Part shown: positions 6,008 to 8,884 of the stretch, piece after piece
Layout of the letters: every line of letters starts with the position of its first letter
Numbering within the stretch: position 1 is the first letter of the stretch
DNA from: a bacterium
GTDB taxonomy: Bacteria; UBP6; UBA1177; JAKLFG01
Direction of reading: 5' to 3'
Length of the DNA stretch: 64,000 bases
NCBI GenBank assembly: GCA_022711315.1
Contig: JAKLFG010000001.1
Span: 15,886-79,885 of the forward strand
Program-made: the position numbers and the translations under genes
The notes under the pieces: generated by a model
Database searches by the model: none
What the model was told of the DNA's origin: nothing
Seen by the model: the letters and a program-made list of their open reading frames with translations, nothing else

Positions 6008-6040
6008 CAATAAGAAACCGGCCGGGATGATCCCGGCCGG
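6008..6040 (-). terminator. Rho-independent terminator after the Cys-rich peptide gene
   Basis: Perfect 10-bp stem CCGGCCGGGA / TCCCGGCCGG (6018-6027 and 6031-6040) with a 3-nt loop. On the minus strand it is followed by TTTCTTATT. Confidence 0.7.
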
Positions 6041-6068
6041 CCTTTGAGATGGACAAAGAGCGAGGGAC

Positions 6069-6254
6069 TTACTTCTTCTTGCCGCAACCGCAGGTGCATT
6101 CTTTGCCTTCCTGACAACCGCACTTGCAATCCTTGCCACACTTGCACTCCGACTTCGCGCCCTTGCCGCAACCGCAGCCGTCGCCCGCCATCAGATTCGC
6201 CGTGCCGAGCGTCATCGCCGTCAGCATCAGCGCCATCGCCAACATTTTCTTCAT
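6069..6254 (-). CDS. Exported metallothionein-like Cys-rich peptide (61-aa precursor)
   Basis: ATG at 6254 sits behind SD AAGGAG. Signal peptide is MKKMLAMALMLTAMTLGTANLMA. The 38-aa tail has 10 Cys as CxC pairs (GCGCG, CKCG, CKCGC, CTCGC). The gene is bracketed by a sigma-54 promoter and a terminator. Confidence 0.7.
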   Translation of the reverse strand: MKKMLAMALMLTAMTLGTANLMAGDGCGCGKGAKSECKCGKDCKCGCQEGKECTCGCGKKK

Positions 6255-6297
6255 CGCTTCTCTCCTTTCAAAGGTTACCAAACAGCGACCTTACTAG

Positions 6298-6313
6298 AGC
6301 ATGATGCGTGCCA
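6298..6313 (-). promoter_or_regulatory. Sigma-54 (-24/-12) promoter
   Basis: The minus strand reads TGGCACGCATCATGCT. This is GG-N10-GC spacing with one mismatch to TGGCAC-N5-TTGC. It lies ~45 nt upstream of the peptide ATG and next to a GAFTGA-type activator gene. Confidence 0.7.
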
Positions 6314-6423
6314 ACGGAAAAGCGTTTATAGTTTATAGTGATATCAGATAGTTGAGATATTATCGGCAGTTTGCTAAAAGAAAAGTGTAGACTTTTCATC
6401 ATCACTTTCGTAGAATAGTCTTC

Positions 6424-7803
6424 ATGATGGAGAGAAGATTACTCATAGCCGACGACGACGCGAGCTTCCGGGAGGTGATGTCGTTCACTCTCACCGAGGC
6501 GGGCTACACCGTCGATGCGGCGGCCGACGGGATGGCGGCGCTCGATCTGTTCCGCCGTCGGCGTCATCCGGTGGTCGTCACCGATCTCAAGATGCCGGGG
6601 ATGGACGGGATGGCGCTCGTCAAACGGGTGAACGCTCTGGCGCCGGGGACGCCGGTCATCGTGATAACGGCATTCGGCGAGGTCGATACGGCCGTGGCGG
6701 CGATGAAGGCGGGGGCGTTCGACTTCATCCCCAAACCGTGCGACCGCGATCATCTCAAGATCGTGGTGGAACGCGCCTTCGAACACGCGCGGCTCGCCGA
6801 CGAGAACGCGGTGCTCAAGCGGGCGCCGTCGAGCGAAGGAAAGGAACTGATCTACCGTTCGACCGCGATGCAGACGGTGGTGGGGGTCGCCGACCGCGTC
6901 GCCGAAAGCGATTCGACCCTGCTCATCACCGGCGAGAGCGGCACCGGCAAGGAACTGCTCGCCCGCCGCATCCACCGCCATTCGGCCCGCGCGTCGGGTC
7001 CGCTCATCGCGGTCAACTGCGCGGCGATACCGGCGGAACTCATCGAGAGCGAACTCTTCGGTCACCGCAAGGGGGCCTTCACCGGCGCGACGCGCGACGC
7101 CCGGGGGAAGTTCGAACTGGCCCACGGCGGGACGCTCTTTCTCGACGAGGTGGCCGAACTGCCGCCGAATCTTCAGCCGCGGCTTCTGCGCGCACTCCAA
7201 GAACAGGCGATAGATGTCGTGGGCGGCGAAGAGCCGGTGCCGGTCGATGTCCGCGTCATCGCGGCGACCAACCGCGATCTGTCGAAACTGGTCGACGAGG
7301 GGAAGTTCCGGCTCGACCTGTTCTACCGGCTCAATGTCATCGTCCTCCATATACCGCCGCTACGGGAGCGGAGCGAGGATATCGCGCCGCTCGCCAAACA
7401 TTTCCTCACGGCCTACGGCGGCGGACGGCCGTTCGAACTGGGCGACGAGGCGTTGCGCCGGATGCGGCGGTACCGGTGGCCCGGCAATATCCGCGAACTG
7501 GAGAACATCTGCCAGCGGGTGACGCTCCTTGCCGAGGGCGGGGTGGTGCCGATCGACCTGATACCGGAAACGGCGCCCGAGACGGAGGGGATGGTGGTGA
7601 GCGCGGCGGGGCGCATCCAACTGCCCGCCGGAGGGATATCGCTCATGGAACTGGAGAAAGAGGTGATCGTGCAGGCGCTGGAAAGGAGCGGCGGGAACAA
7701 GGCGCAGGCGGCGCGACTACTGCGCATCCCGCGTCACATCCTTCTCTACCGGCTGGAACAGCACGGCATCGCCGGGAAGGGGAACGATGAAAAAGGTCAG
7801 TGA
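6424..7803 (+). CDS. Sigma-54-dependent response regulator (NtrC family: REC-AAA+-HTH)
   Basis: REC domain (LLIADDD...VVVTDLKMPGMDG), Walker A GESGTGKE, GAFTGA loop, and C-terminal Fis-type HTH (NKAQAARLLRIPRHILLYRL). Confidence 0.92.
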   Translation: MMERRLLIADDDASFREVMSFTLTEAGYTVDAAADGMAALDLFRRRRHPVVVTDLKMPGMDGMALVKRVNALAPGTPVIVITAFGEVDTAVAAMKAGAFDFIPKPCDRDHLKIVVERAFEHARLADENAVLKRAPSSEGKELIYRSTAMQTVVGVADRVAESDSTLLITGESGTGKELLARRIHRHSARASGPLIAVNCAAIPAELIESELFGHRKGAFTGATRDARGKFELAHGGTLFLDEVAELPPNLQPRLLRALQEQAIDVVGGEEPVPVDVRVIAATNRDLSKLVDEGKFRLDLFYRLNVIVLHIPPLRERSEDIAPLAKHFLTAYGGGRPFELGDEALRRMRRYRWPGNIRELENICQRVTLLAEGGVVPIDLIPETAPETEGMVVSAAGRIQLPAGGISLMELEKEVIVQALERSGGNKAQAARLLRIPRHILLYRLEQHGIAGKGNDEKGQ

Positions 7804-8884
7804 ACTGCTTTCGCTCCGGGCGTGGGGACTCATCTGGGTGCCGATACTCGCCATCACCACGGCCCATTTCCTGACCAGCGATGAACTGGTGTGGGTCCAC
7901 GACATCCTGCGACGGCTCTACTACATCCCGATAGTGCTGGGCGCTTTCGGTTGGGGTCTGCACGGGGCGCTCGCCGCATCCATCGCCTCGTCGATCGTCT
8001 ATCTGCCGCACGCGTTCCAGATGTTCGTGCACCATTTCCACCACGATCCGGGCGGTTCGACCGAGAAGATACTCGAGATACTCCTGTTCAACATCATCGC
8101 CCTCATCGCCGGAGTGCTCGTCGAACGCGAACGGCGCGAGCGGCGGCGGCAGGAGGAGATCGCACGGAAGCTATCGGAAACGCTCGACGAGATGAAACTG
8201 CTCGACGAACAGCTCATCCGCACGGGGCGTCTGCAGGCGCTCGGCGAGATGACCGCGGGGCTCGCCCACGAGATAAAAAATCCGCTTGCGTCAATCAAAG
8301 GGGCGGCCGAGATCGTGGCCGACGGTATCCCCGCCGATTCGCCGCGCCGCCGGATGGTCGATATCCAGCGCGCCGAGATAGAGCGGCTCACCGCGCTTCT
8401 CGAACGGTTCCTGAATTTCGCGCGGCCCAAGGATTTCGTCGTGGCGGCGGTCGATATCGCCGCGCTTCTCACCGACACCGTCGCCTTCATCGCGCCGCAG
8501 GCGGCGAAGAAGAATGTACGCCTTGAGACGAGATTTGAGCCGCTGACGGTCCCGGCCGACCGCGAGAAACTGACGCAACTGCTCCTCAACATCCTTCTCA
8601 ACGCGGTGGATGCCTCGCCCGAAGGATCGACGGTGACGGTCTCGACCGAGAAACGGCGCAAGGGGAAGAGCGACTACGCCTGCATCACGGTCGCCGACCG
8701 GGGAGCGGGGATCCCAGCCGGGAGCCGCGAGAAGATATTCAATCCCTTCTTCACCACCAAGCCCGACGGAACGGGTTTGGGACTCTCGATAGCGGCGCGC
8801 ATCGCCGATCAACACAAAGGGTTCATCGAAGTGGACGACGCGCCGGAAGGCGGCGCGCTCTTCAGGGTCTTTCTGCCCCTATAA
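7787..8884 (+). CDS. Membrane sensor histidine kinase
   Basis: H-box [13 protein letters not shown]. HATPase N/G boxes are LLNAVDA, DRGAGI and GTGLGLSI. The N-terminus has hydrophobic helices with a His-rich segment [13 protein letters not shown]. It overlaps the regulator gene by 17 nt. Confidence 0.9.

Follow-up and report, generated by a model that had tools for sequence, protein, structure and literature searches.

A conserved sigma-54 module in a UBP6 bacterium and its predicted exported, metallothionein-like peptide

What does a bacterium gain by placing an entire two-component system beside a gene of only 61 codons? This question is raised by a 64,000-nucleotide stretch of DNA from a bacterium of the UBP6 lineage (GenBank assembly GCA_022711315.1, contig JAKLFG010000001.1, positions 15,886 to 79,885 of the forward strand), referred to below as the window. 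Between positions 6008 and 8884 of this window, a small gene for a Cys-rich peptide lies divergent from the genes of an NtrC-type regulator and a membrane histidine kinase. An original prediction, made from the letters of the sequence, compared this arrangement with that of ZraP and ZraSR and proposed a self-contained envelope module for metal or thiol stress, whose single output would be an exported metallothionein-like peptide. The elements on which it relied are all present at the coordinates given below: the 61-codon open reading frame (ORF), its Shine-Dalgarno sequence, the signal-like N-terminus, the tail with 10 Cys, the sigma-54 element, a hairpin after the stop codon, a TAGAAT hexamer upstream of the regulator gene and two palindromes in the spacer. 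The comparative analysis reported here indicates that the two-component system is very probably a metal sensor, and that metal sequestration outside the cytoplasm is the most likely role of the peptide.

The pre-peptide ORF (61 aa) is read on the minus strand from 6254 to 6069, the stop codon occupying 6071-6069. Its first 23 residues, MKKMLAMALMLTAMTLGTANLMA (6254->6186), display the features of the n-, h- and c-regions of a signal peptide, arranged as MKK + MLAMALMLTAMTLG + TANLMA|GD, with a mean hydropathy of 1.9, Ala at position -1 and Leu at position -3. As a signal-like N-terminus is also kept in all peptide homologues, this segment looks like a Sec-type signal peptide and a substrate of signal peptidase I. 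The predicted mature product is the 38-aa Cys/Gly/Lys peptide GDGCGCGKGAKSECKCGKDCKCGCQEGKECTCGCGKKK (residues 24-61; 6185->6072, minus strand). Its 10 Cys are arranged as CxC-x7-CxC-x3-CxCxC-x5-CxCxC, so that every Cys lies within a CxC motif. Cys, Gly and Lys account for 26%, 26% and 24% of the residues, respectively, aromatic residues and His are absent, and the net charge is +4. Low mass, a wealth of CxC motifs and the lack of aromatic residues and His are the compositional hallmarks of the metallothionein functional class. At the level of families, no match to the peptide was obtained in Pfam, NCBIfam or PADLOC, nor among PDB sequences even at E <= 10, nor with the Pfam Metallothio_Pro model (the BmtA/SmtA family) even at E <= 1; its relatives gave sub-threshold matches only, to Metallothio_5 or PEC (insect or plant metallothionein models). 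Judged by its composition, the peptide would nevertheless pass for a textbook metallothionein, and the sequestration of metal outside the cytoplasm is its most likely role.

Is this short ORF translated at all? In GC-rich DNA it might have arisen by chance, or a small RNA might be the product of the locus: it is short, it matches no family, and many spurious overlapping ORFs are found in this 61% GC window. The conservation of the ORF at the level of codons speaks strongly against this possibility. Seven unnamed clusters of homologues, 60-81 aa in length, were retrieved by a search of 5.8 billion proteins, and further homologues came from a scan of species-representative genomes, among which two metagenome-assembled genomes (MAGs) are labelled 'uncultured Spirochaetales'. 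The ORF is kept in at least nine related lineages without a single frameshift, which bears out its conservation in relatives, and all 10 Cys are invariant. Length variants consist of whole-codon in-frame insertions or deletions, or of one complete additional Cys unit. The ratio of non-synonymous to synonymous substitution rates (dN/dS) lies between 0.10 and 0.20, and the most distant pair, the window versus L003, is close to saturated at synonymous sites (proportion of differing synonymous sites, pS, 0.68). The Shine-Dalgarno sequence and the start codon are conserved as well. These data indicate that the peptide ORF is a real gene under purifying selection, and the idea of an untranslated ORF, effectively refuted by the codon-level conservation, retains hardly any probability.

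A first indication of the signal to which the module responds comes from the sister lineages. An exhaustive profile search returned a relative, P0027/P0057, that agrees with the peptide over its first ~30 residues, having a common signal and a GEGCGCGC head (shared motif GCxCGC), and that continues with an Ala/Pro/Lys linker followed by a Pfam heavy-metal-binding domain (HMBD; PF19335, E = 8.5e-12). From this match, the N-terminus of the HMBD protein is homologous to the peptide and of shared origin with it. In L112 (GCA_964412895.1), the locus sits in the chromosomal frame of the peptide-type locus L001 (gltX, STAS, Phos_pyr_kin, AhpC/TSA, a hypothetical gene, GT4, kinase, regulator), a frame also found in L024 and L022. 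Because this frame is the same as in L001, the L112 locus is orthologous rather than paralogous to the peptide-type locus. The L112-type regulator is 92% identical in protein sequence to that of the window and 95% identical in DNA sequence to that of L001, and it is nested in the peptide-bearing clade, whose own range is 77-93%. The L112-type kinase is 85% identical to the window kinase and retains its HHFHHD loop (see below), while the conserved intergenic blocks are present there too, together with a TGGCATACATTCTGCT element.

What follows this cassette in the L112-type loci is an efflux operon. Its targets are, in order, the HMBD protein, an OEP outer-membrane factor, a CusB-like adaptor and a fragment of a CusA/CzcA-family RND pump. 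The adaptor carries an HMBD of its own (HlyD_D23 1e-63, NCBIfam CusB 6e-46, CzcB/NccB 2e-33), and the pump fragment matches the CusA/CzcA heavy-metal RND family at 1e-59 versus ~1e-12 for multidrug RND. A metagenome scan with the HMBD variant yielded mostly generic HMBD proteins, L024 being the only relevant locus among them. Because the orthologous cassette drives a heavy-metal efflux operon, the two-component system would sense a heavy metal and the peptide would be an output for metal resistance. We conclude that the two-component system is very probably a metal sensor. As to which metal, the all-Cys ligands and the CusB-like adaptor lean towards Cu(I)/Ag(I), and the His loop together with the similarity to CzcB allows for Zn/Cd/Co/Ni.

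Of the two kinds of stress that had been proposed, the sister loci thus favour metal; thiol stress gained no support. The peptide could still act on something other than a cation, as a sacrificial periplasmic thiol pool that buffers a thiol-reactive stressor of the envelope (oxidants, polysulfide, electrophiles) or a metalloid (arsenite, tellurite). Ten closely spaced thiols would indeed react with such agents, and in L001 and L112 an AhpC/TSA gene is found within a few genes of the module. However, two unrelated genes stand between them, and the window has no such gene in the vicinity of the module. Moreover, the targets of the orthologous cassette, HMBD proteins and a CusA/CzcA-family pump, belong to cation systems, and the His-rich loop of the kinase suggests cation sensing. 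We therefore regard a thiol pool as distinctly unlikely.

We then considered how the peptide gene would be expressed. A sigma-54 (-24/-12) element, TGGCACGCATCATGCT, which reads TGGCAC-GCATC-ATGCT, is located on the minus strand at 6313->6298, with the GG at 6312/6311 and the GC ten bases further on at 6300/6299, ~59 nt upstream of the peptide ATG. It is the sole match in the 64-kb window on both strands, and each of ~20 related loci likewise has a single match at the same position, ~59 nt before the ATG of the target gene. In an alignment of 10 orthologous intergenic regions, the GG and the GC are invariant and none of the seven bases between them is (0/7). A functional -24/-12 promoter would be expected to look like this, with GG and GC fixed and a spacer that varies freely. 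With C6299 placed at -12, the usual spacing would put the start of transcription near 6287 and leave a leader of ~33 nt. Within this predicted leader lies a block, GTAAC..TTTGAAAGGAG, in which 8 of 20 columns are invariant and which contains the Shine-Dalgarno sequence AAGGAG (6267->6262, minus strand, 7 nt before the ATG at 6254).

Directly after the peptide stop codon, an intrinsic terminator spans 6010..6041 on the minus strand and consists of a hairpin (6041->6017) followed by UUUCUUAU. The GC-rich hairpin is made of 10 Watson-Crick pairs and one G-U pair with a UCA loop. It was not listed by a simple scan; its fold has an energy of -27 kcal/mol (z = -4.4), and 0/200 shuffled sequences were as stable. 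The arms of the hairpin, CCGGCCGG, are kept across peptide-type loci and the loop varies. The genes located past the peptide differ between lineages: AAA_14/DUF4143, a 503-aa hypothetical protein, Fic, a DUF6036/AbiEii-like pair (in the window), or MazG directly. Because the terminator arms are conserved and the genes beyond them are not the same, the peptide transcript is taken to be monocistronic and to end at this terminator. On the other side, wherever the flanking DNA of a lineage extends far enough, the same two genes, for a regulator (458-459 aa) and a kinase (365-368 aa), are divergent to the peptide gene across an intergenic spacer of ~170 nt. The arrangement has thus been preserved while the genes beyond the peptide changed, as anticipated for a self-contained module with a single output.

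The regulator gene (6424..7803, plus strand) encodes an NtrC-family response regulator/enhancer-binding protein of 459 aa. It is composed of a REC domain, an AAA+ domain with a GAFTGA motif (codons 7072-7089), an AAA lid and a Fis-type helix-turn-helix domain, and matches the Pfam models Response_reg (7e-30), Sigma54_activat (7e-70) and HTH_8 (1e-12). It has every domain that defines an NtrC-class bacterial enhancer-binding protein, and its orthologues carry GAFTGA or GSFTGA; the only GAFTGA activator adjoins the sigma-54 promoter. Among the NCBIfam equivalogs, no model reached its cut-off, and the AtoC and NtrC models outscore ZraR. The kinase gene (7787..8884, plus strand) overlaps the regulator gene by 17 nt and encodes a membrane histidine kinase of 365 aa with DUF4118-like, HisKA and HATPase_c regions, confirming the activator and membrane kinase of the original prediction. 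Four transmembrane helices are predicted, connected by loops of at most 16 residues, and there is no periplasmic domain.

The short loop before the last transmembrane helix of the kinase contains the sequence HHFHHD (residues 82-87; codons 8030..8047, plus strand), which is invariant in the five kinase orthologues compared. Kinase homologues at 52% identity, from Deferrimicrobiaceae, have LVARDPG at this position, and the His cluster is therefore a clade-specific acquisition. Because the last helix runs straight into the cytoplasmic DHp domain, the HHFHHD loop must face the periplasm. This topology and its invariance make it a reasonable candidate for a periplasm-facing metal-sensing site. A search with the sensor region of the kinase produced only three distant partial homologues; their context, that of an ABC transporter, is uninformative, and their value lies solely in showing the His cluster to be specific to the clade.

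The small size of this sensor region bears on a further question, namely whether the peptide might act on the kinase rather than on the metal. It could mainly be a regulatory accessory that, in the manner of ZraP or CpxP, contacts the periplasmic loop of the kinase and sets the threshold or the shut-off of the response by feedback. The kinase indeed offers only a short His-rich loop and no sensor domain, the peptide is the module's only output and has evolved in close step with the two-component system, the sister locus still has an exported protein with the same GCxCGC head, and ZraP is described as a repressor of ZraSR in an entry of the reference list of PMC4987338. However, the cassette of the sister lineages works without the peptide, driving an efflux operon, and the kinase thus would not need the peptide. 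In addition, the Cys module of the peptide is widespread as stand-alone cytosolic proteins with no kinase nearby. We consider a mainly regulatory role unlikely; it would be compatible with metal sequestration, the two not being exclusive.

Expression of the regulator and kinase genes themselves appears to follow a different logic from that of the peptide gene. A promoter scan identified a sigma-70-type promoter, TAGACT-17-TAGAAT (6388..6416, plus strand), whose TAGAAT hexamer (6411-6416) ends 7 nt before the regulator ATG at 6424. There is no Shine-Dalgarno sequence at this ATG. The series of TAGACT-17-TAGAAT, 7 nt and ATG is retained in 10/10 loci and a Shine-Dalgarno sequence is found in 0/10, so that the leaderless transcript suggested earlier as possible is now probable for the regulator-kinase mRNA. 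The block 6379-6423 is the best-conserved non-coding stretch of the region, with a mean pairwise identity of 0.87 and 30 of 45 columns invariant. A search for a clean conserved dyad that could bind the regulator yielded, within this block, only an imperfect one, GAAAAGT-GTAG-ACTTTTC (6380..6397). Relative to the predicted sigma-54 start its centre is at about -101, and it overlaps the -35 hexamer of the regulator promoter. Enhancers for sigma-54 activation are typically found near such a position. Position and conservation together make the dyad a candidate enhancer (upstream activating sequence, UAS) and autoregulation site; because it overlaps the -35, binding of the regulator there could auto-repress the operon.

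By comparison, the AT-rich spacer between this candidate UAS and the sigma-54 promoter (6316..6378) is variable and is the least conserved part of the region (mean pairwise identity 0.60; 10 of 64 columns invariant). It holds the palindromes TATCAGATA (6342-6350) and GATATTATC (6356-6364) and a tandem CTATAAA x2. The palindromes have to be discarded as operators: relatives lack both, and the stretch that contains them has a mean pairwise identity of 0.63, with 6 of 23 columns invariant. Most relatives have a TGTTTT-N10-12-AAAACA dyad near -55, which is absent in the window, where ATATC-N10-GATAT and the tandem CTATAAA x2 are found. The spacer is probably a merely bendable linker.

To place the peptide in a broader context, we considered the family to which its Cys module belongs (unit consensus C-x-C-x3-C-x-C-G-C-Q-E-G-K-E-C-T-C). 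A first profile search gave the impression that nearly all relatives are exported. Because this profile included the signal peptide, the search was biased toward exported relatives, and a search with the Cys domain only ruled the impression out. In the latter search, two or three copies of the module mostly form entire tiny proteins of 34-64 aa without signal peptide, and exported forms are a minority, comprising the present clade, P0063 and lipoproteins such as P0010, P0012 and P0094. The signal-less 34-64-aa proteins P0058-P0096 consist of repeated CNC-x3-CTCGCQEGKECTC and are encoded on contigs of at most 300 kb from gut, rumen and other metagenomes. Judged by their sequences, they seem to form a prokaryotic family of metallothionein-like proteins that has gone undescribed. 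Neither Pfam nor NCBIfam has a model for the Cys-module family, for which the sources give 'hypothetical protein' at most, and the motif strings were not found in the literature searched. Because dozens of stand-alone proteins of 34-64 aa consist solely of the same 13-residue module, it would be functionally self-sufficient and metallothionein-like.

The module is also found in other settings. P0026 (567 aa) is a fusion of an N-terminal array of Cys units with a DUF1207 outer-membrane beta-barrel protein, and P0020 (238 aa) is a fusion of a Cys unit with a GrpE-like coiled coil, without signal peptide. From such architectures, the Cys module evidently serves as a building block in larger proteins. 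In L021, a Verrucomicrobia MAG (intervals 2129-2296 and 5688-8048), a protein with a Sec signal and ECKCGKDCKGDGCKCGCHKAKK is encoded at a distance of 3.4 kb from genes for a P1B-type heavy-metal ATPase with an SPC motif and for a UspA-like protein. The proximity of the P1B-ATPase hints weakly at an independent association of the motif with metal transport.

This distribution also bears on a different view of the peptide. Being small, predicted to be secreted, Cys-rich and of net charge +4, it could be a cationic peptide that is secreted and knotted by disulfides, for example a defensin-like antimicrobial, a signal or the precursor of a ribosomally synthesised and post-translationally modified peptide (RiPP), and the two-component system would then serve competition or communication; many such peptides are under two-component control. 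Several observations are difficult to accommodate with this view. The CxC spacing, the 26% Gly and the lack of a hydrophobic core are atypical of disulfide-knotted folds, and the leader is of the Sec type rather than double-glycine, without a PADLOC or Pfam match. There are no conserved adjacent genes for maturation, immunity or transport, the far-side neighbours being different in every lineage. Finally, the Cys module of the relatives is mostly cytosolic, and the sister locus points to metals. We consider a knotted peptide very unlikely.

Taken together, the observations suggest a complete regulatory chain, to which we assign a probability of roughly 0.6: from a His-loop kinase to an NtrC-type activator, a sigma-54 promoter, a monocistronic mRNA and finally a Sec-exported metallothionein-like peptide. 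Periplasmic metal ions of the Cu/Ag or the Zn/Cd class would act at the HHFHHD loop of the kinase, at the outer face of the inner membrane, and stimulate autophosphorylation. The phosphoryl group would be passed to the NtrC-type regulator, which would oligomerise on an enhancer beside its own gene, possibly the dyad at 6380-6397. By ATP hydrolysis and through its GAFTGA loop, the regulator would then open the sigma-54 closed complex at TGGCAC-N5-ATGCT (6313->6298). The resulting short transcript of ~270 nt, from ~6287 to the terminator at 6041-6010, would code for the 61-aa pre-peptide only. After Sec export and cleavage by signal peptidase I behind ...NLMA, the 38-aa peptide with its 10 Cys would reside in the periplasm and sequester soft metal ions in thiolate clusters, as a metallothionein sponge or possibly as a chaperone. 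The regulator-kinase operon would be transcribed from its sigma-70-type promoter, probably as a leaderless mRNA, and may be auto-repressed. Our confidence is higher than for the chain as a whole where the regulatory architecture and the link to metal are concerned, and lower for the exact sensing site and the enhancer.

Several points weigh against this chain. At the promoter, a sigma-54 pattern is by count alone not significant in 64 kb (0.63 matches expected; at least one match in 44/100 shuffles), and for this reason the element is judged by its position and conservation. It also departs from the consensus TGGCAC-N5-TTGCW by one mismatch in the -12 element, ATGC for TTGC. No RpoN box was found in the 64-kb window or in the related clade loci, all of them genome fragments. 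The best candidate enhancer, the dyad at 6380-6397, is imperfect in most relatives, and the window spacer is markedly unlike its counterpart in L014, even though L014 is the closest relative and has a 98% identical peptide; this change has the appearance of a local rearrangement. Export is predicted from the n-, h- and c-region features and their conservation. Ten thiols would be prone to form disulfides in an oxidising periplasm, and the chain thus requires an anaerobic or reducing envelope; because the thiols would oxidise in an aerobic periplasm, it presumes an anaerobic lifestyle. Lastly, distant members of the family are encoded without a consistent metal-gene neighbourhood (EamA, cytochrome bd and HSP20 being among the neighbours) and without a two-component system.

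A broader and more tentative proposal, to which we give somewhat less than even odds, would account for the family as a whole. The Cys module would be an unrecognised metallothionein-like module that occurs widely, in the form of tiny cytosolic proteins, among uncultured bacteria that are mostly anaerobic or from the gut, and a few lineages would have gained Sec or lipoprotein signals and thereby a periplasmic metallothionein. In the present, spirochaete-like clade, the exported form would have replaced a CusF-like HMBD protein and a CusCBA-type pump as the sole output of a conserved sigma-54 sensor, efflux being swapped for extracytoplasmic sequestration.

Such a swap would be of interest in several respects. 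Periplasmic metal handling is usually credited to Met/His chaperones, multicopper oxidases and efflux pumps, and the few bacterial metallothioneins are described as cytosolic. A Sec-exported, all-thiolate peptide with a dedicated sensor would, if true, add periplasmic sequestration in anaerobes to this repertoire. The sister lineages, in which one cassette of sensor, regulator and promoter at the same site is followed by either an efflux operon or the peptide, would constitute a natural experiment in output exchange. The 38-mer can be synthesised chemically and could be used as a metal-binding tag or biosorbent, and the compact set of His-loop kinase, regulator and promoter could serve as the chassis of a metal biosensor. 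At the level of databases, the Cys module represents an annotation gap, being a sizeable family without a name or a Pfam/NCBIfam model.

The remainder of the window gives the setting of the module. The region from the purF-like/mazG genes (25-1674) to the peptide gene is a variable island, as established by comparison with L006, L005 and L009; in L006 there is nothing in this interval, and mazG borders directly on the peptide gene. In the window, the island contains genes for an Lcl_C-domain lipoprotein (2301-3551) and a VWC/Pacifastin-like Cys-rich secreted protein (3577-4314), an AT-rich ORF and the AbiEii-like pair. The AT-rich ORF (4349-5059, plus strand) encodes a membrane-like protein of 236 aa that is rich in Ile, Lys, Tyr and Asn and has no match in Pfam or PADLOC. 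It lies at 4200-5200, where the GC content drops from ~0.6 to 0.33 over ~1 kb; this stretch probably has a foreign source and entered the variable island that separates mazG from the peptide gene. Directly past the peptide terminator, at 5173-5978 on the minus strand, are genes for a DUF6036/AbiEii-like nucleotidyltransferase of 192 aa (Pfam 8.5e-08 and 1.4e-06; PADLOC AbiEii 4e-05) and for a 76-aa ORF that belongs to no family. This pair has its own sigma-70-type promoter, TTGACT-17-TAGAAT (6010-5982). It is also found in L009-L011 and is absent from other lineages, and it has the appearance of a toxin-antitoxin pair of type IV or an abortive-infection pair. Further along the minus strand are the genes for a eukaryote-like Ser/Thr protein kinase with C-terminal PEGA domains (13830-15764) and for a 1042-aa beta-propeller/LVIVD-repeat protein (25786-28914), both unrelated to the module.

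How does the module compare with systems already described? In appearance, the mature peptide is close to fungal and animal Cu/Zn metallothioneins, such as the Cu-metallothionein of Neurospora crassa and the mammalian beta-domain, with which it shares a mature N-terminus of the type GD(G)CGC..., the CxC spacing, a filler of Gly, Ser and Lys and the lack of aromatic residues. Homology to these proteins is not demonstrable: pairwise BLASTP aligns Cys positions only, at ~16 bits. Because the scores are this low, the likeness is ascribed to compositional convergence. Unlike the predicted location of the window peptide, moreover, the eukaryotic metallothioneins are cytosolic. Among bacterial proteins, SmtA uses His as well as Cys ligands and adopts a zinc-finger-like fold. 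The window peptide resembles SmtA/BmtA and MymT in being small and Cys-rich, and differs from them in having a Sec signal, no His and no match to a Pfam metallothionein model. SmtA/BmtA and MymT are metal-induced, cytosolic proteins that sequester metal in thiolate clusters (PMC7558416). An exported version had been expected to be unusual. This agrees with the lack of a signal in most Cys-module relatives, and no exported or periplasmic bacterial metallothionein of such kind was found in the literature searched. A functional counterpart outside the cytoplasm is Csp1 of methanotrophs, an exported, Cys-lined store for many Cu(I) ions that is a Tat-exported tetramer of pre-folded four-helix bundles (PMC7558416). 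Like Csp1, the window peptide is predicted to be a thiol-rich store outside the cytoplasm; unlike it, the peptide is a 38-aa chain of Gly, Lys and Cys that has a Sec signal and lacks a predicted fold, and the two are not related in sequence.

In its layout, the module is like ZraP-ZraSR of E. coli and Salmonella, with regulator and kinase genes divergent from a single small sigma-54 gene whose product is predicted to be exported. ZraPSR, a metal-responsive system for zinc and envelope stress, likewise has an NtrC-type two-component pair facing away from a lone sigma-54-dependent gene, whose product is exported and binds metal, and ZraR drives sigma-54 promoters in both divergent directions (PMC4987338). 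Induction by Zn or Pb is a further mark of that system. The window has one sigma-54 motif, which faces the peptide gene, the regulator side being served by the sigma-70-type, probably leaderless promoter. The proteins differ as well. The window regulator scores 385.8 bits against a cut-off of 760 for ZraR (NCBIfam NF007689), and the kinase 194.4 bits against 479 for ZraS (NF007688), in a match that spans the cytoplasmic residues 106-365 only; unlike ZraS, the kinase has no periplasmic sensor domain and instead combines four transmembrane helices with the HHFHHD loop. ZraP is a CpxP-family chaperone, whereas the target here is a 38-aa all-Cys peptide to which no Pfam or NCBIfam model corresponds. 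Thus, the Zra comparison of the original prediction is apt as an analogy of layout and does not extend to homology: the module would work like ZraPSR but fails every homology test run for membership.

The second resemblance is to the cusRS-cusCFBA and czc heavy-metal RND efflux systems, to which the cassette of the sister lineages is similar in governing genes for a small exported protein that binds metal and for three efflux components, namely an outer-membrane factor, a CusB-like adaptor and a CusA/CzcA-family pump. CusR and CzcR are OmpR-type regulators that act at sigma-70 promoters, whereas the window regulator is an NtrC-type sigma-54 activator. CusF, the small periplasmic metallochaperone of the cus system, binds its metal by Met, His and Trp in a beta-barrel; the window peptide would rely on Cys clusters. 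Unlike in cus and czc, no pump follows the peptide gene in the window lineage, where a strong terminator ends the transcript. The peptide nonetheless holds the position of the small exported protein of the sister locus and shares its N-terminus.

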